From Nanobdellota archaeon (GTDB lineage Archaea; Nanobdellota; Nanobdellia; Pacearchaeales; GW2011-AR1): a stretch of DNA of 64,000 bases. The notes under the pieces are model-generated. The model saw only the letters and a program-made list of their open reading frames with translations, did not search any database and had not been told where the DNA came from. The stretch's first letter is position 1, and each line of letters opens with the position of its first letter. This document shows, in pieces, positions 3,481 through 58,306 of this stretch. The DNA is taken from NCBI GenBank assembly GCA_038045705.1, contig JBBSXO010000002.1:1-64000 (forward strand), given 5' to 3'. The position numbers and the translations under genes were made by a program.

Positions 3481-4758
3481 TTACTTCTTAGCTGTAATCT
3501 CTAAGCAAACGCCAGCTGCAACGGTGCTACCAGCATCTCTTACCGCAAATCGAGCCATATTTGGATTTGTAGCCTGTGTTTCAAGTACAAGGTTTCCAAT
3601 AGGTCTTATTCTAACTTTAGCAATATCTCCATTCTTCAAGAAGTCAGGGTTTGAAGCCTTTGTCCCATCAGGAGATTGTTTTTCAATCAATTCAATAAAC
3701 TGACATGGCACTTGAGCAGTATGTACATGGAAAACTGGTGTATATCCTTTAGCAATAACTGTTGGGTGTGAAATTATAGCAACTTGAGCAACAAACTCTT
3801 GTACAATTGATGCAGGTTGAGATGCGTCACAAACAACATCGCCACGAGCAATATCTTTCTTTCCAATACCTCTGATATTGATTCCAACATTATCTCCAGC
3901 TTCAGCTTGATTCATTTGTTCATGATGCATTTCAATAGTCTTAACTTCACCATTAATTCCTGTTCCTGACCTTCCAGGTAAAATAACAACCTTTTGACCG
4001 AGTTTCATAATTCCTGTTTCAATCTTTCCAACTGGAACAGTTCCAATACCAGTAATTTCATAAACATCTTGTAAAGGCATTCTTAATGGTAATGATGTTG
4101 GTTTGTTAGGTTGTTCAAATAAGTCTAACTGTTCTCTAACAGTTGGTCCCTTATACCATGGCATGTGTTCTGACTTCTTAACAACATTATCCCCAAGATA
4201 ACCAGCAGCAGGAATAAAAGCCATTGTTTCAGTCTTATAACCAGCTTGTTTTAATATAACTGAAACATCAGCAACAACTTTTTTATAAGCATCTTCTTTC
4301 CATTGAACAGTATCCATTTTATTAACAAGAACAGCAATCTGCTTAACACCCATTGTTCTTAAAAGCCAAGCGTGTTCTTTTGTTTGAGGTTGAACTCCTT
4401 CAGCTGCTGCAACTGTTAAGAAAGCAGCATCAGATTGTGAAGCACCAGTAATCATGTTCTTGATAAAGTCTTTGTGACCAGGAGCATCAATTATTGTAAC
4501 TTCATACTTATTTGTAATCAACTTTTGATAAGAAAGATCAATTGTAACTCCTCTTTCTCTTTCTTCCTTAAATTTATCCATAACATAAGCAAACTCAAAA
4601 CCAGCTTTACCATGTTCCTTTGCAATTGTCTTAAGCTTGTCTATTTCTTGCGCAGGGATAGCTCCAGCATCGAACATCAATCTACCAATAGTAGTACTCT
4701 TACCGTGGTCTACATGACCCACGAAAGCAACGTTTATTGTTGGTTTTGTTTTTGCCAT
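3481..4758 (-). CDS. tuf: Translation elongation factor EF-1 alpha
   Basis: GHVDHGKST, ERERGVTID, DAPGHKDF, NKMD; archaeal type. Confidence 0.98.
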   Translation of the reverse strand: MAKTKPTINVAFVGHVDHGKSTTIGRLMFDAGAIPAQEIDKLKTIAKEHGKAGFEFAYVMDKFKEERERGVTIDLSYQKLITNKYEVTIIDAPGHKDFIKNMITGASQSDAAFLTVAAAEGVQPQTKEHAWLLRTMGVKQIAVLVNKMDTVQWKEDAYKKVVADVSVILKQAGYKTETMAFIPAAGYLGDNVVKKSEHMPWYKGPTVREQLDLFEQPNKPTSLPLRMPLQDVYEITGIGTVPVGKIETGIMKLGQKVVILPGRSGTGINGEVKTIEMHHEQMNQAEAGDNVGINIRGIGKKDIARGDVVCDASQPASIVQEFVAQVAIISHPTVIAKGYTPVFHVHTAQVPCQFIELIEKQSPDGTKASNPDFLKNGDIAKVRIRPIGNLVLETQATNPNMARFAVRDAGSTVAAGVCLEITAKK

Positions 4759-4922
4759 TTTAATTTGTAATCAGTTTTATTTTTGTGGGTATTTAAACTT
4801 TGTGATTTTTGAAGATTATATTCGTTTAATAAATTAAAATTCAGACAATAAAAATAAAAATAATCAAGAAATATTGATAAGTCTAAGAAATATATTTAAA
4901 CTCTAAATCTCAAATAAAAAAT

Positions 4923-5102
4923 ATGGAAAAAGAGCAAGAGTTGATTGTTGAGCAGGGAGAATACAATTTAATTGCAAACACAGATAAAGATTTTAAAATA
5001 ACTCATTTAGTTCTAAAGGCAGCAAATGGATCAAAGAGAGTTTGGAAAGTAGAAGAACTATCTGAAAAAGAAGTTTCATTTAAAATAGAAAAGTTTGCAT
5101 AA
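4923..5102 (+). CDS. Small hypothetical protein (59 aa, MEKEQELIVEQGEYNL...), below the ORF-track cutoff
   Basis: Open frame from ATG 4923 to TAA 5102 with TATTTAAA ~25 bp upstream. Confidence 0.55.
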   Translation: MEKEQELIVEQGEYNLIANTDKDFKITHLVLKAANGSKRVWKVEELSEKEVSFKIEKFA

Positions 5103-5122
5103 TACACTCGATGAACATCAGT

Positions 5123-5329
5123 TCAGCAATATTTACTAAAACTATGTTGTATATGTTTAACAGTTTCTACTTTTTCAGTAATTTTCTTAAAATTTTTATT
5201 ATTTATCTTTGAGACTTCTTCTTTCAAAAAGTTCTCAACCCTCTTGCTCATGCTTATTCCATTTTTTTTACAATATGCAGAAAACTGTTTATACACTTCT
5301 TCCTCAATATTGAATGTTTTTATGCTCAT
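5123..5329 (-). CDS. Ribbon-helix-helix DNA-binding protein
   Basis: KTFNIEEEVYKQFSAYCKKNGISMSKRVENFL fits the RHH strand-helix-G-helix pattern. Confidence 0.7.
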   Translation of the reverse strand: MSIKTFNIEEEVYKQFSAYCKKNGISMSKRVENFLKEEVSKINNKNFKKITEKVETVKHIQHSFSKYC

Positions 5330-5330
5330 G

Positions 5331-5406
5331 TTCAAAACTCTCTTGTCCTGTATGCGTAGGCATACCAGTTTAGTTTTGAACTGCTAAAAATTTCAATTTT
5401 TTCCAT
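5331..5406 (-). promoter_or_regulatory. Conserved leader copy 1: 24-aa uORF plus 50-nt inverted repeat
   Basis: uORF MEKIEIFSSSKLNWYAYAYRTREF (5406-5332); TTCAAAACT..GTATGC-N4-GCATAC..AGTTTTGAA; near-identical to 10945-11020. Confidence 0.75.
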
Positions 5407-5513
5407 TCTCATCACTTATTATATAATGTTAATTAAGATTAATAAACCTTAGCATAAAAATTAAACAGAACTTTAACAAATACAAATATCTAATTAAAGT
5501 TATATAATATTAA

Positions 5514-5864
5514 TTAAGTATAACCTGGATGCAATGTAGCTCTTTGAGGAACAATTGTTTCAATTCTTCTTTTAACCCAGTCATATCCTGCGTTTCTCCA
5601 ATCATTACACTTTACCATTGCTCTATAACCTATAGCTCTTCCAAACTTATCCATAGAGTGCACTGAAATCGCTAAAGCATTACCTACTGCACCAAGAACT
5701 TTAACGTATGGTCTCTTGTAGAAAGGTATACTGCTTATTATAGGGGCTCCATCTTCAATATCTTCAACAAAATCCTCTTCAACAACCCTATCTAATGCGC
5801 TCTGTATTTCTTCTCTTAAATTTGGTTTAAGAGTCATATATCCAGGAGTCTCTTTTCTATTCAT
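5514..5864 (-). CDS. Hypothetical protein
   Basis: 116-aa ORF with ATG start and upstream TATA-like element; no recognised motif. Confidence 0.6.
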   Translation of the reverse strand: MNRKETPGYMTLKPNLREEIQSALDRVVEEDFVEDIEDGAPIISSIPFYKRPYVKVLGAVGNALAISVHSMDKFGRAIGYRAMVKCNDWRNAGYDWVKRRIETIVPQRATLHPGYT

Positions 5865-5898
5865 GGGTCAAAGTCAAACCAAAAGCAAATTAATAAAT

Positions 5899-6195
5899 CT
5901 ATCTTTGATTTTTAAGATAATTTATTGCTCTGCCTGATTTTTCTTCAGGCATTTTCAACAAAACCCTTCTACCATAACCACCACAAAAGACTGAAACTTC
6001 TAGAGCCCTTAAGAATGGATTATATTCATGAACTCTCATACCATTACCTTGAGCTCTATGAGTGAATTCTCTCCCTAACATAATTCCAGCTAAATCAGGT
6101 GTATCTTTTAGTCTTAGGATGAAAGGCAATATTCTAGGATCAAAAGATGCTGGACCACTAGAATATAGCTTTGCAATATCATTAGAAAAATCCAT
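5899..6195 (-). CDS. Hypothetical protein
   Basis: 98-aa ORF directly downstream of EF-2. Confidence 0.6.
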   Translation of the reverse strand: MDFSNDIAKLYSSGPASFDPRILPFILRLKDTPDLAGIMLGREFTHRAQGNGMRVHEYNPFLRALEVSVFCGGYGRRVLLKMPEEKSGRAINYLKNQR

Positions 6196-6207
6196 ATTAA
6201 ATTAAAA

Positions 6208-8397
6208 TTATTGATTAGCTGCTAACCCCTTTCTATCTCTAATTTTTCTAACCACATTTTCCTGTAATTCGCGAGGTAATTGTTTGAAGTCTTGAGTAAT
6301 CAAACTAGAAACTCCACGACCTTCAGTGAGACTTCTCAAATCACTTGCCCATCCAATCATTTCAGCTACTGGAATTCTTGCTTTGATAAATACATCAATT
6401 CCTTTCTGTTCTACATCAATTAAAATTCCACGTTTACTTGCAACCAAACCAGTAACAGAACCCATATAATCAACAGGTGCTTCAATTAAGTGTGTTTGAA
6501 TAGGTTCAAGCATTGCAGCTCCGCCTTTAGTCATTGCATCAAACATTCCTAGTCTTATGGCTGGATAAATCTGCGCAGGACCTCTATGCATATGGTCAAC
6601 GTGCAATTTAGAATCATGTAAAATGAATTTTGTCTTCATCAATGGTTCTTTAGACAAAGGTCCATTATCTATAACAAGTCTCCACCCATCAATTATTGAT
6701 TCAATTACTTCTGAAAGTAATACAAGACCTCTCGTCTGATCTTCAAAGACATTTCCCTTGTAAATGTCTCTATAAGCCCTAGCTTCATCGTTTGATATCC
6801 CTAAATCAGATAATTTTTTCCAAATGTCTTCAGGTTTTTTCTTAAGCCTTCCTTCAGGAATATCTCCTTTTTCAATAGAATCATAAACATTATCTTCAAG
6901 AGGCATCATTTCAAGGAAGAATATGTTGTGCCCATTAGGAGTTCTACTTTCAATTTCTCCACTTGATTTAATCAAAGTCTCTCTATAAACAATAATTGGA
7001 TTACCCATTTTAACTTCAAGACCTTTCTCCGTCTTTATACGACCTTCAATAATCTCTAAATGTAACTCACCCATTCCAGAAAGTAAGTTTTCTCCAGTTT
7101 CTTCATTAATCTCAATTTTAACTGAAGGATCTTCTTTTCCAACTTTACGCAAAACTTCAATCAATTTAGGCAAATCTTGTGGTTTAGTAACTTCAATAGA
7201 TTTAGTAATAACTGGCTGGAATATATGTTTCAACTCTTCAAATGGAATTTGCTCTCCAACAGTAATTGTCTCTCCAACATCAACATTAATTCCAGAAATA
7301 GCAAGTACATTTCCAGCAGGAACTTCTTCAAGTTGTTCTGGTTTAATTCCATTATAAACTAAAACTTGTTGAACTCTTGCTTTCTTTTTATTGTTATTAC
7401 AATAAACTTCCATTCCAGTCTTCATTGTTCCAGAATACAAACGACCAGCACAAATTTCCTTCCCAGATCTAGGATCAATAACAATTCTAGTAACTACAAA
7501 AGCAAGCTCACCATCTCTATTACAACCAATTAAATCTTGACCCATCTTACTATCAATATCTCCTCTCCATATTTTAGGGATTCTATATTTCTGCGCTTCC
7601 AAAGGATTAGGCAAGTGCTTAACAGCCATATCAAGAACTACTTCATGTAATGGAGCATTCTTCCAAACCCACTCTTTTCTAGCAGTTTCTTCCATATCAT
7701 AAATTTTGATTATATCACTAAAACTAATATTTCTCTTCTTCATAAAAGGAACAGACAAAGCCCAATTTTCTCTAGCAGAACCAAAAGCAACACTTCCATC
7801 TGCTACACTAACTCTCCATTTTTCAGCCAATTCTGGTTCAGCAATTTGTAAAATCAAAGTATTAAAATCCGCAATAACTTTAGCAAATTTTTCCTGCATT
7901 TGTTGAGGAGTGACTTTTAATTCTTTAATCAATCTATCAACTTTGTTAATAAACAAAACAGGTTTAACTCTTTCACGTAAAGCTTGTTTCAACACAGTTT
8001 CTGTTTGAGGCATTATTCCTTCAACAGCACAAATAAGTACAAAAGTCCCATCAATAGCTCTCATAGCTCTAGTTACGTTTCCACCAAAGTCAATGTGACC
8101 AGGGGTGTCAATTAAATTAATCAAATATTCTTTTCCATCATATTCGTGACCCATGCTAACATTTGCAGCGTCTACAGTCATCAATCTTTCTTGTTCGTCT
8201 TTATGAAGCCATGTACTCATTCCCTCTTCAAGATCTCCAGCATTCTTAGAAGCCATCATTCCAGCAGCAGCTAGTAAGTTATCTGTGAAAGCGGTTTTTC
8301 CGTGATGTATGTGAGCAGATGTAGCAACATTACGAATATTCGCTTGGTTACTTGTCAAACGTTCAATCTTCAGTAAACTTGTTTCTTTCTCTGCCAT
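6208..8397 (-). CDS. fusA: Translation elongation factor EF-2
   Basis: AHIHHGKT, DTPGHIDF, NKVD, GMGELHLE, diphthamide-loop HRGPAQ. Confidence 0.97.
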   Translation of the reverse strand: MAEKETSLLKIERLTSNQANIRNVATSAHIHHGKTAFTDNLLAAAGMMASKNAGDLEEGMSTWLHKDEQERLMTVDAANVSMGHEYDGKEYLINLIDTPGHIDFGGNVTRAMRAIDGTFVLICAVEGIMPQTETVLKQALRERVKPVLFINKVDRLIKELKVTPQQMQEKFAKVIADFNTLILQIAEPELAEKWRVSVADGSVAFGSARENWALSVPFMKKRNISFSDIIKIYDMEETARKEWVWKNAPLHEVVLDMAVKHLPNPLEAQKYRIPKIWRGDIDSKMGQDLIGCNRDGELAFVVTRIVIDPRSGKEICAGRLYSGTMKTGMEVYCNNNKKKARVQQVLVYNGIKPEQLEEVPAGNVLAISGINVDVGETITVGEQIPFEELKHIFQPVITKSIEVTKPQDLPKLIEVLRKVGKEDPSVKIEINEETGENLLSGMGELHLEIIEGRIKTEKGLEVKMGNPIIVYRETLIKSSGEIESRTPNGHNIFFLEMMPLEDNVYDSIEKGDIPEGRLKKKPEDIWKKLSDLGISNDEARAYRDIYKGNVFEDQTRGLVLLSEVIESIIDGWRLVIDNGPLSKEPLMKTKFILHDSKLHVDHMHRGPAQIYPAIRLGMFDAMTKGGAAMLEPIQTHLIEAPVDYMGSVTGLVASKRGILIDVEQKGIDVFIKARIPVAEMIGWASDLRSLTEGRGVSSLITQDFKQLPRELQENVVRKIRDRKGLAANQ

Positions 8398-8533
8398 TTT
8401 ACAAAATAGATAAATCGTCTTATTAAATATGGTTTTTAAACGTTGTGAAAAAGTGGGCTTTGTGTAAATAGTCTCTAGAGGAGTTCACTTTTTACATCAC
8501 TCACCTAATTCTTTGCCACAGGGAAATAAAAAA

Positions 8534-8872
8534 TTATCTCTTTTTCCACGCAGATGCTGAAAAAATTAAGTCTTTGTCAACACTCAAACCTTTTAACATA
8601 TTTCCACTACAAAATGCTTCAACAACTTTTCCTTCAAGTTGTGATGGCTGGCAAGTATTTGTTCTAGCAAAAAGTTCTTCTATATCTTTAGGATCTCCTA
8701 AAGACCATGACGCTTCACCATAACCTTTATACTTCAATTTAAACTGTAGTCTGCACCAATCATGTGAAAAATCAAAAGTTGGTTCTTCAATTCTTGCATA
8801 TTCCATTGTTAATTTTCTGACTTGTTCATCTGTCAATCCATTGCTATACCATTTATCAACTTGTATTGTCAT
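8534..8872 (-). CDS. Hypothetical protein
   Basis: 112-aa ORF with TTTATAAA upstream, between rps7 and fusA. Confidence 0.6.
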   Translation of the reverse strand: MTIQVDKWYSNGLTDEQVRKLTMEYARIEEPTFDFSHDWCRLQFKLKYKGYGEASWSLGDPKDIEELFARTNTCQPSQLEGKVVEAFCSGNMLKGLSVDKDLIFSASAWKKR

Positions 8873-9024
8873 AATTTATGGATAATAGACCCATTTATAA
8901 ACCTTTCTATATTTACTACTTTCAAGTTATACTACTTTCAGAAACTTACATATCATCCCAATAGGTATCTTTAAAGTTAAAATTAATCTTCGATATTTGA
9001 GTAGAAATCATTATTTTATGACAA

Positions 9025-9633
9025 TTATCGAGCAGAATCTGCTTGTTTTTCAGCTTCGTTTTTCTTGTTCATGGCATAACTTTCCATGTTTTGTTCTGAA
9101 GCGTTAATTATTTCTTGAGCAAGTGCTTCAGCCATTTTCTTCTTTTTTCCAAATGATTTTTGGAATGATCCTTGAATCATCCATCTAATAGCTAAGTTAA
9201 CTCTTCTTAAAGGAGATACATCAACTGCTTGAGGATATCTAGCCCCACCATATTCAATTGTTGTAATCTCATCACGAGGAGAAGCACTTTCAATAGCCTT
9301 TACAAGAATTTGAACAGGATTTGTTTTTTTCTTTTCAGCAATAATTGCTAATGCATTAATCATAGTCTGCATATTCATATTATATTTTCCAGAAGAGTGA
9401 GATGTAATTATTTTATGTTTTTTCCCAACGTGTCCTGGAACAGCTAATCTGTTCGCAAGTCTTTCTATAATATGAACCTTTGTTTGTGTAAATTTACCAA
9501 CATTTCTTCCATGAGATTTTACAAGTAATTTTGGTTGGATATTTATGTAAGGTGCTAATGCCGAATCAGTAACCTTTACTTCTTCCATGTCATATAAGTC
9601 AAATATTTTGAAGTTCATTGTGCTTACAGCCAT
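9025..9633 (-). CDS. rps7: 30S ribosomal protein S7 (uS7)
   Basis: NPVQILVKAIE, PRDEITTIEYGGARYPQAVDVSPLRR. Confidence 0.97.
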   Translation of the reverse strand: MAVSTMNFKIFDLYDMEEVKVTDSALAPYINIQPKLLVKSHGRNVGKFTQTKVHIIERLANRLAVPGHVGKKHKIITSHSSGKYNMNMQTMINALAIIAEKKKTNPVQILVKAIESASPRDEITTIEYGGARYPQAVDVSPLRRVNLAIRWMIQGSFQKSFGKKKKMAEALAQEIINASEQNMESYAMNKKNEAEKQADSAR

Positions 9634-10055
9634 TATCTTCTTCCCTTCTCTATCTTACCTTTCCACAATAAGTGAAGTGGCTGATCATTTACTTGAATAA
9701 CTCTAAATCTGATACCTCTAATGTTTCCCTTACTTCTTCCTTGTTTTCCACCGATTCTCTCAATCATAACTTCATCATGTTCATCAACAAATTTTTGAGC
9801 TAAGTTTCCAGGAATAAATGCTCCAACAGAAATACCACTTTTTACAAGCTGAACTTTGCAACACTTTCTCATACCAGAAGAAGGCTGTGCAGCTTCTTTT
9901 TGAAATTTGCTAACAACAATTCCCTTAGCTTGAGAAGCACCACCAAGTGGATCTGCTTTAACATTAAGCTTTAGAGTTCTAACCTTGTAAGTACGATCGT
10001 TCCATCTGAACTTTTTCCTATTCTTCATTAGCTTTTTAGCGTTGAATAAACCCAT
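9633..10055 (-). CDS. rps12: 30S ribosomal protein S12 (uS12)
   Basis: DPLGGASQAKGIV, QPSSGMRKC, DEHDEV. Confidence 0.96.
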   Translation of the reverse strand: MGLFNAKKLMKNRKKFRWNDRTYKVRTLKLNVKADPLGGASQAKGIVVSKFQKEAAQPSSGMRKCCKVQLVKSGISVGAFIPGNLAQKFVDEHDEVMIERIGGKQGRSKGNIRGIRFRVIQVNDQPLHLLWKGKIEKGRR

Positions 10056-10118
10056 GTATATCTCCTGTGTAAAATTGGTTTTTAAATCTTCCTCATAAGT
10101 GAATGTTAATTCAAAAAT

Positions 10119-10469
10119 TTATAGGTCATCTTTAATTGAAGGTCTTAATAATGTTTCATATGCTAAAGAGATTGCTTGAAATATTATAATTGGTTCATAA
10201 GCTCTAGAATCTATTGATTGATATAACTCTCTAAAAATATAGCCTCCAACAGCTAATCCAGATATTAAAGCAACCAGATTAGATGCTTTTTCAGATCTGC
10301 TTGCTCCCATCATATCTTCAGTATTCTCACGATAATCTCTAATGTCCTCAATTAAACTCCTTATAGCAGTTGGGACAGCAAATAATATTCCTAGAAAATA
10401 AATTGTCCCTCTACCAGAATTTTCAAATATTCTTTCAGATTCTGTCTTAGTAGGGAACCTATAATCCAC
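10119..10469 (-). CDS. Hypothetical membrane protein
   Basis: 116-aa ORF (GTG start) with 2-3 hydrophobic stretches. Confidence 0.55.
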   Translation of the reverse strand: MDYRFPTKTESERIFENSGRGTIYFLGILFAVPTAIRSLIEDIRDYRENTEDMMGASRSEKASNLVALISGLAVGGYIFRELYQSIDSRAYEPIIIFQAISLAYETLLRPSIKDDL

Positions 10470-10523
10470 AACATTTTGATCAATGATAATTATTTAAATA
10501 TATCCTCTCCGAACTTTCAAGGA

Positions 10524-10943
10524 TTAGACAACTCTAATTGTTTTTCCGAAATAAGATTCCATTATAGCACTTAATTCCATGAGCCTCATTTTATTTCTTC
10601 CAATTAGTGTTGCAGCTCTTTCTCTAGAGCCAGCAGTTATAATATAAGTTCCTTCTTGGATATCAAAACCATCAAAACCAGCAGGTGAAACAACAGATTC
10701 TACAAATCTAGCGACGGAATTTGGATCATCACCAGCATCTTTTATTATCCTTATTCTTTTTCCAAGTTGTTCTGAAAGCATTTTTGCATTTTCATTTTGG
10801 TTTCCACTTGCTTTAGAAAAGAATTTTGGAGGGACAGCAAAGTAAATCATATTGTTGTAAACAAAACACTTTGTTGCACGAACACGAGCAATTCTCTCGA
10901 AGAGATTTATATATCTCATCGTCTGCATATCTATTATTGCCAT
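10524..10943 (-). CDS. nusA: Archaeal NusA-like transcription factor (KH domains)
   Basis: MRYINLFE, LIGRNKMRL; canonical position between rpoA and rps12. Confidence 0.88.
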   Translation of the reverse strand: MAIIDMQTMRYINLFERIARVRATKCFVYNNMIYFAVPPKFFSKASGNQNENAKMLSEQLGKRIRIIKDAGDDPNSVARFVESVVSPAGFDGFDIQEGTYIITAGSRERAATLIGRNKMRLMELSAIMESYFGKTIRVV

Positions 10944-10944
10944 A

Positions 10945-11020
10945 TTCAAAACTATTTTGTGTTGTATGCGCAGGCATACCAGTTTAGTTTTGAATTGCTA
11001 ATAATTTCAGTTATTTCCAT
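10945..11020 (-). promoter_or_regulatory. Conserved leader copy 2: 22-aa uORF plus 50-nt inverted repeat
   Basis: uORF MEITEIISNSKLNWYACAYNTK (11020-10952); same nested inverted repeat, ending 1 nt before the nusA ATG. Confidence 0.75.
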
Positions 11021-11069
11021 TTTAAAACAAATTTATTCACGTAGTTAGTTTATAAAACTTCTGAAATAA

Positions 11070-14000
11070 TCATTCTTTTTTAGATTTATTCTTTATCTTC
11101 TTATCAACCAGAGCACCAGTTATTTTTACAAGTAATCCAGGTAGTCCTGTACCTACAGGTATAGGTTGGTTAAGAATAATATTTTCGATAACAGAAGCTA
11201 AATCATCTTTCTTACCTTGTATCGTAGCATTTACAAATTGTTTATCAGGTGTCTCGAAAGCTGCTCTAGCAAATATACTTGATTTGTTTGAGATAATTCC
11301 CATTCTTGTAACCCCTTTAACGAGGCCAGTATTTGTCATCGCATCAGATATTAAATCCAAGTGTCTCTCATCAATATCTAAACCTTGAGAGTCAAGAACC
11401 TTTTTAATTTCAAGTAATATAGCTTCTCTAGCAGCTTCAATTCCAAGAACTTGAGCAACTTCATGAACATTGTTTGTAAAGACTTTATTTTTATCAACTC
11501 CCTTAATTTCAATTACTTCTTTAAGATTACTTCCACTAGTTAGTACAACAAAGTCTTTTCCCCTATGAGCAACAACAACTTGTGATATATCTTTAACCCC
11601 TGAAATAATTGTTTTCTTTAATTTCTCTTTCATCTTATACATCTCTTTGAATCCTAATTCAGTTGTCTTCAAAATAATTGAATTATCTTTTTGTTTAGCG
11701 TCAATTCCTTTTTCATTTAATCTTTCTGCAATCTTTTGGGCACCAACATGAACTCTCTTAAGAGCATCAGAATCTAGTTCTATCTCTATCTTTTTTCCAG
11801 AAAAGTCCATTTTAACTTCTGAAGCAATTTCTTCAAGTTTGACTTCCTTAAGTTTTTCAGCAATGCTTCTTGCATCTTTTTCATTATTGAAATCTTTATC
11901 AAGATAAATCTCCATTGCAGGAGTAGAAGGTTCTTTTCTAGCATCAAATATTTCAATTAATCTAGGAAGACCTAAAGTAACCTGCACTTCAGCAACTCCA
12001 GCAGAGTGGAATACGTTCAAAACCATCTGCGTTGAAGATTCTCCAAATGATTGTGATGTTGTAACTCCAACAGATTCTCCAGCTTGTATTTTTTTACCAG
12101 TATGTAATTCAGAAACATCTCTACCATCTCCACCATATAAAAATTGAACAATATTCTGTGAAGCATCTCTAACAGTTCCATCATATTCCACTTTCAAATC
12201 TTGAAGAGCACTTACAAGTCTTCTATACAAGTAACCAGATTTAGGGGTTCTCAAAGCTGTATCCATTAATCCATCTCTTCCAGTAATTGCTCCAAAGAAA
12301 AATTCAGTCGGTTTCAATCCTTCAAAGAATGAAGATTTAATGAATCCCTTAGCCTCTGAACCAACATCTCCTTTCTTGAAGTGAGAAGTTGTTCTCCCTG
12401 CATACCCAAAACTAATACGTTTATTCCACAAGATCTGCTGTCCAACACAACATCCAATTTGTGTAACATTAGTTGCACTACCCTTAGCTCCAGAAAGAAT
12501 CATTTTACTTATGCTACTTTCACGAGAAATATTTTCCTTTACAATCTTACTTGCAGAAGATAGAACTTCGTTCAAAGCTTGAGAAATCTTAATTTCTTTA
12601 GTTTCATCAATAGTTTTACCGGGAAGCAATTCCAAGTCTCCAGATCTTGCATCTTCAGCAATCTTATTAGTTTTCTTTACAGTTTCTTCGATAATATTAT
12701 CTGTAAGTTCCTTAACTTTACCAGATACATCTAAATCACGTAAACCTATAGAGAAACCTCTTCTAGTCAAATATGAAACTCCAAGTGCAGATGCTCTTTG
12801 AATTGTATCAAATGTAGCATCTCGCCCATGCACTTTATCAATTTGTTTTACCATAGAACCATCTTCAAGTCCTAACGTTGATTCACTTGTGATATCTTTA
12901 GGTACAGTAAGCTCATTGCCCTTAGGAAGAATACCACCAAAGACATCTATCCCACTAATATTTTTTTGTTTAACATTAAATATCACTCCAGCACTAAACA
13001 GCAACTGTTCAGCGTCAGATTTTTCAAAATTATCCTTTCCTAAAACATAATTTCCAGTAAGAGAATCAAGAGTAAGTCCAATCAAGTTCGAATTGTTTTT
13101 CGTAGACATTATATTATGTTTAATATTAAGCAAAGTTTCAGCCTCAGATCTAGCTTCTTCAGTTTGTGGAGAGTGTATGTTAACTTCATCTCCATCAAAG
13201 TCAGCGTTATATGGAAATACAACTGCAGGATGCAATCTAAATGTCTTATAAGGCAAAACTCTAACATAATGAGCCATTAAGCTCTGCTTATGAAGTGAAG
13301 GATGTCTGTTAAACAGTACAATATCCCCATCAACCAAATGTCTTTCAACTTTATATCCAGGGACAAGTTCAGTGCAAATTTCTTCTTTTAATTCCTCTGT
13401 GATTCTCTTTTTCTTCCCGTCAGGTCTTATAACATAATTGGCTCCCGGGTGTTGATCTCCCTTTCTCACAAGTGCCCTCATATATTCTAAGTTTGTACTT
13501 GTAACCCCCTCAGCAACAGTGATTATTTTAGCAACTTCAAAAGGAACTCCAACTTCATCAAGAGCCAAATAAGGATCAGGTGAAACTACAGTTCTTGCAG
13601 AGAAGTTAACTCTTTTACCAGCTAAGTTCTTCCTAATTCTTCCTTCTTTACCTTTAATCCTTTCAGTTATTGTCTTCAAAGGCTGTCCAGACCTATGCCT
13701 TGCTGGAGGAATCTTAGAAATATTATTATCAAAGAATGTTGTAACATGGTATTGTAATAAGTCCCAAAGGTCTTCAATAATTACTTCAGGAGCTCCAGCA
13801 TTCAAATTTTCCCACAATCTCTGATTTGCTCTTATAATATCTGAAATCTTGTGAGTCAAGTCATCTTCACTTCTTTCTCCTGTGTCAAGAGTAATAGAAG
13901 GTCTCATTGTAACACTAGGTACAAGCAACTGTGAAAGAATTGCCCACTCAGGTCTAAATGTTTTAGGATTAACTCCAATCTTTTTTATTTCTTCATCCTT

Positions 14001-14513
14001 AATCTTAACAAGCATCTCTCTTATTTCGTTAGGGAATAATCTTTTTTTTCCAGTATAGAAAGAAGTTGGTTTCTCTAATTTTATTTTTTCAGCATCAACG
14101 TTACAGAAAGGACACTTTTTCTTATCTCTAGCCTTCTTAGCTCTTTCGATAGGTGTGTATTTCTTCTGTTTATCTTCTTCCAAAGTTAATTTTCCGCAAG
14201 AGTGACAGAAACTTCTCAAGAATAACTCAATCAAAGGAATATATTTAATATGCACAATAGGTCTAGCCAATTCAACACTACCGGGATGTCCAAGACATTC
14301 CTTAAGACGACCACCACAAGTTCTACATCTTACCCCAGGGTCAACAGCTCCAAGACGTAGATCCATAAGACCCCCATCTACAGGGAATCCATCAATATCA
14401 TAAAGTTCAGGTGTTACAATTTTAGCAGTACTTAACTTCTTAATTTGTTCTGGATTGACTAAACTAAATCTAAGTGATTTTACTTGCTTCTTTATTATTT
14501 CAGGGTTTGCCAT
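11070..14513 (-). CDS. rpoA: RNA polymerase subunit A (A' and A'' fused)
   Basis: CRTC/CLGH Zn site, catalytic YNADFDGDE, then A''-type TQMVLNVFHSAG and TLGLPRLIE in one frame. Confidence 0.97.
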   Translation of the reverse strand: MANPEIIKKQVKSLRFSLVNPEQIKKLSTAKIVTPELYDIDGFPVDGGLMDLRLGAVDPGVRCRTCGGRLKECLGHPGSVELARPIVHIKYIPLIELFLRSFCHSCGKLTLEEDKQKKYTPIERAKKARDKKKCPFCNVDAEKIKLEKPTSFYTGKKRLFPNEIREMLVKIKDEEIKKIGVNPKTFRPEWAILSQLLVPSVTMRPSITLDTGERSEDDLTHKISDIIRANQRLWENLNAGAPEVIIEDLWDLLQYHVTTFFDNNISKIPPARHRSGQPLKTITERIKGKEGRIRKNLAGKRVNFSARTVVSPDPYLALDEVGVPFEVAKIITVAEGVTSTNLEYMRALVRKGDQHPGANYVIRPDGKKKRITEELKEEICTELVPGYKVERHLVDGDIVLFNRHPSLHKQSLMAHYVRVLPYKTFRLHPAVVFPYNADFDGDEVNIHSPQTEEARSEAETLLNIKHNIMSTKNNSNLIGLTLDSLTGNYVLGKDNFEKSDAEQLLFSAGVIFNVKQKNISGIDVFGGILPKGNELTVPKDITSESTLGLEDGSMVKQIDKVHGRDATFDTIQRASALGVSYLTRRGFSIGLRDLDVSGKVKELTDNIIEETVKKTNKIAEDARSGDLELLPGKTIDETKEIKISQALNEVLSSASKIVKENISRESSISKMILSGAKGSATNVTQIGCCVGQQILWNKRISFGYAGRTTSHFKKGDVGSEAKGFIKSSFFEGLKPTEFFFGAITGRDGLMDTALRTPKSGYLYRRLVSALQDLKVEYDGTVRDASQNIVQFLYGGDGRDVSELHTGKKIQAGESVGVTTSQSFGESSTQMVLNVFHSAGVAEVQVTLGLPRLIEIFDARKEPSTPAMEIYLDKDFNNEKDARSIAEKLKEVKLEEIASEVKMDFSGKKIEIELDSDALKRVHVGAQKIAERLNEKGIDAKQKDNSIILKTTELGFKEMYKMKEKLKKTIISGVKDISQVVVAHRGKDFVVLTSGSNLKEVIEIKGVDKNKVFTNNVHEVAQVLGIEAAREAILLEIKKVLDSQGLDIDERHLDLISDAMTNTGLVKGVTRMGIISNKSSIFARAAFETPDKQFVNATIQGKKDDLASVIENIILNQPIPVGTGLPGLLVKITGALVDKKIKNKSKKE

Positions 14514-57653: not shown

Positions 57654-58223
57654 TTATTGAGAAACAGGAGTAGGAGAATGAGCCTTATCTTCAACTTTAT
57701 CAAACAAAACACGAGTTCTACAAGGCAACTTTGCCTTAGCCATAGAAATTATTTCTCGAGCTACCTTAACGGTAGATTCAGAATCACAAGCAACCATAAA
57801 TAATTCCTGACCTCCCAAAACACGAGCAGCTCTGCCCTCAATAATACCAAATGACTGTTTCATACCAGTAGATAAACGGTCTGCTCCAGCCCCAGCAGCT
57901 GCTTTATTATTTCTCAAAATGTGATGTGGGTGTATCTTAACCCAAAGATAAAATTTACCAGCTAATCTTGTCTCAAGATTCTTAGTCAAAACCATTCTTC
58001 CAGCTTCAATTGCTAAATCTTTAATAACAATCATCTCATCTGAAATAAGTCTTAAAATAAAAGGTAACTTTCCTTCAACAAAAGCCTTCTGATTCCCAAT
58101 ATTATATTTAACAACTTTATTTGGAGGAACAACTTTAATGTAAGACTTTGATTTTGCTTTAGAAACACGAGTATAAGGTCTATTGTGTTTTTTAGAATAT
58201 GAAAGGGATTTACGAACAGCCAT
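57654..58223 (-). CDS. rpl10e: 50S ribosomal protein L16/L10e (uL16)
   Basis: AIEAGR, HPHHILRNNK...GADRLSTGMKQSFG, AKLPC. Confidence 0.95.
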   Translation of the reverse strand: MAVRKSLSYSKKHNRPYTRVSKAKSKSYIKVVPPNKVVKYNIGNQKAFVEGKLPFILRLISDEMIVIKDLAIEAGRMVLTKNLETRLAGKFYLWVKIHPHHILRNNKAAAGAGADRLSTGMKQSFGIIEGRAARVLGGQELFMVACDSESTVKVAREIISMAKAKLPCRTRVLFDKVEDKAHSPTPVSQ

Positions 58224-58306
58224 GTTAAATTTTATCCTCGAAAATGAAATTCAATTCACTGTTATATTGTGAGTGAAGGCGAGCAGTGTGAGTTAAATAA
58301 ATCATT

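Follow-up and report, generated by a model that had tools for sequence, protein, structure and literature searches.

The stretch of DNA analysed here (the window) covers positions 1 to 64,000 of contig JBBSXO010000002.1 of a Nanobdellota archaeon (assembly GCA_038045705.1), whose genome (G000; 844 kb, 91% complete) was compared with those of its relatives (G001 and following). Its minus strand carries, in this order, rpoB, an unsplit rpoA, a nusA-like gene, rps12, rps7, EF-2, small open reading frames (ORFs) of no known product, a ribbon–helix–helix (RHH)-type gene and EF-1alpha. The subject of this report is a short palindromic leader with an upstream ORF (uORF) of its own, which stands directly before two of these genes. 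Copy 1 (5330..5406, minus strand) abuts the ATG (5329-5327) of the RHH-type gene and copy 2 (10944..11020, minus strand) the ATG (10943-10941) of the nusA-like gene. The RHH-type gene (5123..5329, minus strand; 68 aa) matched Pfam DUF6364 above the cut-off (E 6.8e-7, 30.1 bits) and gave no match in an NCBIfam scan; its orthologues were present in 17 of 17 genomes of the genus. The nusA-like gene (10524..10943, minus strand; 139 aa), located between rpoA and rps12, was taken as a divergent archaeal nusA on the basis of NCBIfam TIGR01952 (nusA_arch; E 7.5e-10), which was aligned over 127 of its 141 profile positions at 39.3 bits, below the cut-off of 74.35.

The two leaders, 5330-5406 and 10944-11020, were 88% identical over 81 nt (blastn E 1.4e-23), and a 31-nt core pattern occurred twice in the window versus 0 times in 100 shuffles, which bears out the homology proposed in a preliminary description of this DNA. 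Both copies (subtype 1a) open with ATG, encode the peptides given there and contain the outer repeat TTCAAAACT/AGTTTTGAA as well as the inner GTATGC-N4-GCATAC. The 9-bp outer arm indeed stops 1 nt short of the gene ATG, and an extra pair, G-C in copy 1 or A-T in copy 2, abuts the ATG. In copy 1 the uORF (5406-5332, minus strand) starts with ATG at 5406-5404, runs for 24 codons and ends with TGA at 5334-5332, followed by AC and the gene ATG; in copy 2 the uORF (11020-10952, minus strand) starts with ATG at 11020-11018, runs for 22 codons and ends at a premature TAG (10954-10952), 8 nt ahead of the gene ATG. Three helices were recognised on the minus strand: P1 at approximately 5401-5386 (copy 1) and 11015-11000 (copy 2), P2 with its arms at 5381-5372 and 5339-5330 or at 10995-10986 and 10953-10944, and, enclosed by P2, P3 at 5365-5350 (loop 5359-5356) or 10979-10964. 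The 5′ hairpin P1 had gone unseen in the preliminary description. That account had also placed the differences between the copies in unpaired positions, which is correct for most of them; two are compensatory double changes, namely the outermost pair (G-C/A-T) and an A-T to T-A change in P1 (columns 12/23, alignment A3). For both copies the folding energy was modestly better than for shuffled sequences, with z at −2.7 and −2.9; folding was equally good on the opposite strand. An Rfam scan of window positions 4000-12500 with E up to 1 returned 0 matches.

A third copy in the window (58224..58305, minus strand; nhmmer E 0.0095) is a degenerate composite of type-2 pieces; its uORF of 26 codons runs from ATG (58305-58303) to TAA (58227-58225), followed by one C and the ATG at 58223 of the ribosomal protein L10e/uL16 gene (57654..58223, minus strand; Pfam Ribosomal_L16 E 2.5e-22). 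Fuller copies than this one precede L10e in other genomes of the genus, and blastn in the relatives showed homologues preceding various different genes. For a structure-based search, covariance model R1 was built from ten ungapped type-1 copies and model R2 from five type-2 copies, and approximately 110–150 candidates were scored per genome; the genomes are incomplete metagenome-assembled genomes (MAGs; 70–91% complete), so that copy numbers are lower bounds. G000 holds at least six copies, before the RHH-type gene, the nusA-like gene, L10e, L15e, L13 and a second small RHH-like gene. With element 1 as query, blastn recovered only the two window copies in G000, the other four being found with the covariance models and nhmmer. 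Within the genus, 13 of 17 genomes gave hits to R1 (29 places) and 15 of 17 to R2 (82 places); the two models agreed on 24 places, and together they marked 87 places in 15 of 17 genomes. The device specific for nusA and the RHH-type gene that had been envisaged at first is thus not borne out, given at least six copies in the genome, a third one in the window and dozens of unrelated genes downstream.

Outside the genus, R2 matched one of 40 genomes from other genera of the family (G027, with six short copies), and R1 gave a weak match in one of 147 other genomes of an order-wide sample. The form in G027, a sister genus (L145-L151), measures approximately 67 nt, has P1 and P2 only and a uORF of 19–21 codons that mostly ends in an ATGA overlap; it precedes L31e, acylphosphatase and genes of no named product. 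A degenerate 20-nt pattern, searched across all species genomes, occurred at 10 places, four of them real and in MAGs whose records bear the names Nanoarchaeota, Pacearchaeota or Woesearchaeota (one of the four assigned from the record itself, three by title). At the other six (bacteria, a cyanobacterium and a Thermoproteota MAG) the rest of the element was missing, and their number is about that expected by chance; a lone match in a viral contig was likewise set aside as chance. On balance, we consider that the leaders belong to a young, lineage-restricted family of palindromic repeats of approximately 60–110 nt, which act as mobile mini-cistrons.

A typical copy measures 77 nt from its own ATG to the gene ATG, and most copies fall between approximately 60 and 110 nt. 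P1 is A/U-rich and weak (6–9 bp) and begins 1–4 nt past the element ATG. P2, a stem of 9–11 bp around P3, forms with it a strong nested hairpin, and the 3′ arm of P2 finishes 0–2 nt before the gene ATG. P3 consists of 6 bp and a CNNC tetraloop in type 1, and of 2 bp, a conserved TC/CT mismatch and another 2 bp in type 2. The inverted repeats of the element are thus two separate internal hairpins, P1 and P2/P3, and both were present as independent hairpins in nearly all copies; no conserved pair of mutually exclusive alternative hairpins was found in the minimum free energy (MFE) folds. The uORF stop (TGA or TAA) lies within the 3′ arm of P2, giving the junctions TGA-AC-ATG, TAA-AC-ATG, TGA-C-ATG or an ATGA overlap. 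Of 30 copies, 19 have a Shine-Dalgarno (SD)-like GGAG or GAGG between −18 and −10, where it overlaps in part with the 3′ arm of P2; the 3′ end of the 16S rRNA contains CCTCC. Some elements contain, once or twice, a nested unit of approximately 51 nt (17 codons, two short hairpins) with the uORF always open (L073:1370-1470 in G012, L064 in G007 and L054:928-964), which behaves as an in-frame palindromic insert; blastn found none of these units in G000. Decayed copies were also seen: the inner hairpin is deleted in copies of G006 and G009, an early stop truncates the uORF in element 2 and in a G014 copy, and window copy 3 is degenerate. Resemblances to bulge-helix-bulge introns, kink-turns and integron attC sites were considered and dropped, since the geometry, judged by eye, did not fit.

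The stem sequences differ wholly among subtypes (TTCAAAACT/AGTTTTGAA, TTCAGAATT/GAATTCTGAA, CAAACTCCC/GGGAGTTTG and TTAATTTCC/GGAAATTAA), and pairing is retained. Among the ten type-1 copies, two-sided changes were found at 8 of 16 pairs and 95.6% of the cells were paired, a value reached by 0 of 500 shuffles, with slid controls at 50% or less. In 72 distinct copies aligned on R2, double changes occurred at 20 of 21 pairs and 91.5% of the cells were paired (slid controls 53% or less), with the reservation that this alignment was fitted to the R2 model and that the copies are related to each other. For P1, a helix of at least 5 bp was predicted in 26 of 30 copies, with stem sequences differing by subtype. 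Judging from these substitution patterns, the stem structure is under selection. In P2 and P3, A.C mismatches outnumber G.U pairs by 38 to 10; A.C corresponds to a wobble pair on the opposite strand. The counts are not independent events, but the excess would fit hairpins that are selected in their DNA or bottom-strand form more than in the mRNA, and it may be in that form that they matter.

The frame opened by the element ATG is kept as strictly as the pairing. With the last 12 nt excluded, stops were found in frame 0 in 3 of 27 copies, compared with 25 and 24 of 27 in the other two frames, and the size variants (−6, −15, −18, +51 and approximately +102 nt) preserved the frame in all cases checked. 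Of 33 copies, 26 have the uORF end between −4 and +3 nt from the gene ATG, one has it at 5 nt and two at 8 nt (window element 2 and a G014 copy); the remaining four were left unscored, namely G003_C23, two copies without ATG at the scanned place and window copy 3, for which the spacing by reading is 1 nt. Usually the stop lies 1–2 nt ahead of the gene ATG, less often a 4-nt overlap is formed. The uORF is no extension of the gene: in 28 of the 29 copies for which a uORF was detected, the distance from ATG to ATG was not a multiple of three, the exception being G007_C12 with 177 nt. The residues encoded by the hairpins track the stems (YAYAY, HDFSC, HAFAC or SSPSL), the N-termini are recurrent (MEKIEIF, MAKIEIF, MKKIDIF, MKIS...) and the C-termini variable. 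Between window copies 1 and 2, all 8 of 8 codon differences were non-synonymous, as read from the alignment. No conserved regulatory codons or arrest peptide were found across subtypes, the peptides of which differ. A frame that is kept and residues that change with the stems indicate that selection is on pairing and on the open frame, the peptide itself not being its object. This bears on the leader-peptide attenuator of the preliminary description: a uORF leading through a hairpin over the start region is present and conserved, but the element is not a gene-specific attenuator of this type, because the peptide shifts with the stems, regulatory codons are unconserved and dozens of unrelated genes follow.

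All 87 places in the genus were inspected. The element ends at the start codon of an ORF in 79 of them (78 ATG, 1 GTG) and in seven it meets the ATG of its tandem partner; the remaining one (G001 contig C20, L063:~1380-1600) adjoins a stretch resembling the 900 region of 16S rRNA, as judged by eye, and may sit within an insertion in an rRNA gene. In 87 of 87 cases the element reads toward the following gene or element. Many copies are intra-operonic, with the stop of the preceding gene 1–6 nt ahead of the element ATG. By its own account, the preliminary description would be refuted by many copies at random positions and orientations, as for a miniature inverted-repeat transposable element (MITE); half of this picture is borne out, the copies being many but their placement extremely non-random. 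The L10e site is filled in at least eight genomes of the genus (G000, G002, G005, G006, G007, G011, G012 and one more). To characterise the following genes, 48 downstream proteins were scanned with Pfam, consisting of a subset of the 79 and four from G027; most repeated sites (RHH, nusA, several L10e and parA sites) were left out of this set and three DnaG sites kept. Apart from ribosomal proteins, the products include Toprim/DnaG-like, FEN1, ParA-like, GTPase, Spt4 and Rpb1-type RNA polymerase subunit proteins, and also exosome RNase PH, DnaJ, Hsp70/DnaK, gyrase A and nusA-like proteins; 12 of the 48 had no Pfam family at 1e-5. The second small RHH-like gene of G000 (contig C9:4821-6796) encodes 43 aa, its RHH fold being a reading of the sequence and not a tool result, and starts with a GTG that overlaps the uORF stop; it overlaps by ATGA the gene of a 616-aa protein that is hydrophobic near its N-terminus, and a gene for a 569-aa protein comes after that. 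Its orthologues in G003 and G002 are also preceded by elements.

Comparison of orthologous sites revealed filled and empty alleles. In G000 the sites before the dnaG, parA, S19, L39e, FEN1 and GTPase genes are empty, and they are filled in sister species; the empty G000 junctions are ordinary and tight (TGAACATG before the GTPase gene, TAATG before S19). Conversely, the L15e site is filled in G000 only, among 15 genomes compared, and there the promoter-like CTTTTTAAA box precedes the uORF ATG rather than the gene ATG. As a side observation, a conserved box of the CTTTTTAAA type is located approximately 20–30 nt before the L15e ATG in 15 genomes of the genus (L091-L105), a spacing that suggests a leaderless or near-leaderless mRNA. 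At the RHH site, 5 of 16 orthologues are filled (by three subtypes), 10 are empty and one is cut by a contig end. A metagenome contig from run X6, which is not the source run, joins 5329 to 5418 via 8 other letters (GAGGAGTG before the ATG) and thus lacks exactly element 1, at a depth of 3.7 that was flagged as low; among the joints listed for the contigs of four DNA runs, only the RHH site shows one skipping the element, and the nusA site none. Copies of subtype 1b precede L15e in G000, a gene for a Tat-signal-like protein in G012 and FEN1 in G014, with 94–97% identity over 77 nt. The L15e coding sequences of the same three genomes are 77.5–80.6% identical (third positions 57–61%, first and second positions 86–90%), and the copies are therefore too alike for vertical descent. 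Tandem pairs and nested copies also occur in the genus. Taken together, the empty sites, the metagenome allele, the identity across species and the tandem or nested arrangement evidently call for recent movement, including movement between species.

The reading to which we incline, somewhat more than we doubt it, is that of a mobile palindromic mini-cistron which is tolerated because translational coupling is preserved. Ribosomes would start at the element ATG, either promoter-proximally or by coupling from the preceding cistron, would melt P1 to P3 while translating and would terminate beside the gene ATG; the gene would then be translated by termination-reinitiation, by ribosome-driven unfolding of the masked start, or by both. 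Junctions in G000 are mostly tight: of 240 proxy gene pairs, 160 are separated by −4 to +2 nt. Termination-reinitiation coupling in Haloferax and E. coli collapses as the distance nears approximately 20 nt, as described in parts of PMC10666635, and ribosomes in the upstream frame can open hairpins that mask a downstream start, for which passages of PMC12548453 give examples. A bare hairpin of 80 nt in a tight junction would be expected to uncouple and mask the next gene. Wrapped in an ORF, the same hairpin would recreate the native geometry at both ends, so that neither uncoupling nor masking should follow, and an element inside a tightly coupled operon would leave the following gene expressed. 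Translational coupling of this kind would account for the kept frame, the indifferent peptide, the position of the stop and the tolerance in ribosomal-protein operons. The hairpins are probably required at the DNA level for spread, and the open frame would be what makes the element tolerable.

As to how such a mini-cistron might spread, it seems possible, if rather doubtful in its full form, that the element is an unusual kind of selfish DNA: a hairpin homing to start codons, perhaps without a dedicated transposase, moving among DPANN species, harmless as a self-contained, translationally coupled mini-cistron and perhaps co-opted as a shared leader at L10e and other ribosomal-protein sites. 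Clues come from the gene starts. The ATG is always repeated, and longer repeats of the gene start were found in G009 (10 nt), G013 (7 nt), G005 (9 nt), G004 (11 nt) and at L15e of G000 (10 nt), other copies repeating only 3–4 nt; the uORF and the gene thus share starts of up to 10–11 nt, as with ATGGTGATAA in G009. On average the common prefix measured 4.56 nt, versus 3.87 nt after permutation, a value reached in 54 of 5000 permutations of sites that are not independent. The first ten letters of subtype 1b equal the L15e start in 11 of 15 genomes of the genus compared. These shared prefixes suggest an exchange of sequence among gene starts that adjoin or resemble one another (such as ATGGCAAAA), which might proceed by template switching or gene conversion and would also account for the orientation, the docking at ATG and the precise loss. 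The element has a hairpin close to either end, and on the bottom strand it always follows CAT and ends in ...CAT, a regularity inseparable from the need for start codons.

Several observations weigh against a selfish, mobile mini-cistron. No mobilising enzyme was identified in the genus, the MAGs of which are incomplete. Genes for a Y1 transposase (PF01797) were detected in only 6 of 17 genomes of the genus, the copy-rich G000, G012, G005, G006 and G014 not being among them, and a TnpB-like gene in 1 of 17. The IS200/IS605-type loci L075-L079 belong to G008, G003, G002, G015 and G013; four Y1 loci and one TnpB-like locus were considered as mobilisers and rejected, being without similarity to the element, and the four Y1 loci showed no hairpins comparable to those of the element. 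The two ends (ATGG... and ...GAAC) are not inverted relative to each other, so that classical terminal inverted repeats are missing, and a target duplication was not consistently found. P1 reverses the wobble asymmetry of P2 and P3, with 11 G.U and 4 A.C (here too the counts are not independent events), and sense and antisense strands fold alike (17 versus 15 of 32 copies, mean difference −0.2 kcal/mol), with 41 versus 48 G.U pairs in the MFE folds. A randomly inserting selfish element should leave some neutral or reversed copies; none of either kind was found among the 87 places, which argues for precise targeting or for positive selection for a leader function. Furthermore, ribosomal proteins, from 15 families, make up 17 of the 48 downstream proteins scanned, and the L10e and RHH sites carry different subtypes in several species; the repeated filling of these two sites, together with the ribosomal-protein share, could reflect function or hot spots. 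Independently of the element, the occurrence of Y1 genes in 6 of 17 genomes and of a TnpB-like gene in one is notable for genomes below 1.1 Mb.

Some of these observations would be expected if the element were a selected cis-regulatory leader that tunes or co-ordinates the translation of ribosomal-protein and information-processing genes by the same mechanism in cis, translation of the uORF opening P2 and passing the ribosome on to the gene. Such a common leader would bear a loose comparison with a regulon signal, its spread between genes being secondary. Consistent with such a leader are the strict placement and orientation (79 of 87 at gene starts, 0 reversed), the over-representation of ribosomal-protein genes beside those for Spt4, RNA polymerase subunit, nusA-like, DnaG-like, FEN1, gyrase A, DnaJ and DnaK proteins, the filling of the L10e site in at least eight genomes and of the RHH site in five, the covariation in all three helices, and the SD-like motif in 19 of 30 copies, with CCTCC at the 16S 3′ end. 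However, each site is empty in most sister species and then forms an ordinary junction, so that no gene depends on the element. Copies also decay, as in G006, G009, element 2, G014 and window copy 3; peptide and loop sequences are unconserved across subtypes; the excess of A.C over G.U in P2 and P3 is unusual for a selected mRNA helix; and the 94–97% identity across species at different genes needs movement anyway. We therefore regard a selected leader as the less likely explanation, though one to be taken seriously.

It is very improbable that the uORFs are genes for small proteins of approximately 20–40 aa acting in trans, with the hairpins incidental: an open frame in 24 of 27 copies, in-frame indels and the recurrent N-termini MEKIEIF, MAKIEIF, MKKIDIF and MKIS... 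speak for such genes, but the residues of the hairpin part (YAYAY, HDFSC, HAFAC, SSPSL) are dictated by stem nucleotides, the 8 of 8 codon differences between the window copies are non-synonymous, C-termini vary, premature stops are tolerated and the conservation is explained by nucleotide covariation. Weakest of all, and hardly credible to us, is a DNA operator bound by the RHH protein or another dimeric regulator, which the preliminary description had proposed as co-regulating the RHH-type gene and nusA: a perfect inner palindrome of 16 bp and an outer one of 9–10 bp between the likely promoter and the gene at the RHH and nusA sites, the position of 2 of 6 G000 copies before small RHH-type genes (the second by sequence reading only) and the scarcity of G.U, which fits DNA symmetry, speak for it, but 10 of 16 RHH orthologues are without the element although the gene is present in all 17 genomes, many copies lie intra-operonically 1–6 nt after the previous stop and far from promoters, the inner stems of type 2 hold a conserved non-palindromic TC/CT mismatch, the stems differ fully between subtypes and leave no single recognition sequence, and an operator would have no use for a conserved open frame or for the stop-start geometry. 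The region upstream of the RHH orthologues (L108-L122) is itself conserved and contains repeated GTTTATTAA / GTTATATAAC-like boxes, which are a more plausible candidate for an RHH operator than the element.

The translationally coupled mini-cistron was compared with known systems. Rickettsia palindromic elements (RPEs) insert in frame within host ORFs and become part of the protein, according to sections of PMC10969869. Like RPEs and the intragenic ERIC and BOX elements treated in the same sections (PMC10969869), the present elements are small multi-copy palindromes with an open frame, located in or near essential genes of a reduced genome, where such repeats persist since translation passes through them. 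Unlike RPEs, the most familiar of the ORF-bearing repeats, the element forms a cistron of its own, which has an ATG and a stop, is not in frame with the gene and is always placed at its start codon; RPE-like in-frame behaviour is limited here to the nested 51-nt hairpin pieces. A term search of the 2024 review of prokaryotic MITEs (PMC10969869) found no mention of a start codon or Shine-Dalgarno sequence. The element resembles a classical MITE in being small, non-autonomous and multi-copy without an enzyme-sized ORF, and differs in having neither terminal inverted repeats nor, as far as found among the incomplete MAGs of the genus, a parent transposon whose ends match its own. REP/BIME sequences and the IS200/IS605-derived PATEs are short, non-autonomous, hairpin-defined elements that are strand-specific and moved by Y1 transposases. 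The present element shares with REP and PATE elements the hairpins in place of terminal inverted repeats, and its wobble asymmetry hints that the bottom strand folds; in contrast to them, G000 and other copy-rich genomes have no Y1 transposase and no sequence link to the insertion sequence loci of the genus was found. To our knowledge, REP and PATE elements have not been reported to be docked at start codons or to carry a coupling ORF.

On the side of translation, genes VII and IX of phage f1 and the coat and lysis genes of MS2 are coupled through a masked start, as recounted in parts of PMC12548453. As in these cases and in archaeal termination-reinitiation, an upstream ORF runs across a hairpin whose end lies directly ahead of the following start codon, and stop and start are a few nucleotides apart; whereas f1 and MS2 present fixed junctions of two real genes, a portable cassette of 20–40 codons would here recreate the junction at any site it reaches. 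In synthetic bicistronic design leaders, the SD sequence of the gene lies inside a leader ORF, and unwinding by the ribosome frees expression from local structure. Mycobacteria possess leaderless short-ORF attenuators, which are outlined in passages of 10.1101/834739. The element is like both in that a short leader ORF ends at the gene start, but those leaders are engineered or gene-specific sensors with regulatory codons, whereas the element is a natural repeat without conserved codons. None of the systems compared combines portability, start-codon docking and a self-contained coupling ORF, and the literature searched contained no description of such an element, though two MITE surveys or their supplements might list one.

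Two further features of the neighbourhood were recorded. The RNA polymerase subunit A, which in most archaea is split into A′ and A″, is encoded at 11070-14513 (minus strand) by a single ORF of 1147 aa with Rpb1 domains 1–5. Four ORFs of 98–116 aa at 10119-10469, 8534-8872, 5899-6195 and 5514-5864 (all minus strand) interrupt the conserved rpoA-nusA-S12-S7-EF2-EF1alpha cluster and had no Pfam or NCBIfam match. In a metagenome contig of run X4, positions 5448-5927 are swapped for 25 other letters, so that at least one of these interleaved ORFs is variable in the population.

If the reading as a translationally coupled, mobile mini-cistron is true, mobile DNA would colonise crowded, essential ribosomal-protein and transcription operons by imitating a stop-start junction and not by avoiding genes; the element would be a natural counterpart of the engineered bicistronic leaders and would allow termination-reinitiation and unfolding by the ribosome to be tested directly in archaea. 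If instead the leader is a selected regulatory one, it would provide a first case of a leader signal common to ribosomal-protein genes within an archaeal lineage. For the annotation of DPANN genomes the family is a warning, as its small ORFs and leaders of 80 nt stand repeatedly ahead of core genes and can displace start predictions. Under either reading, the polymorphic sites would be usable as strain and species markers.

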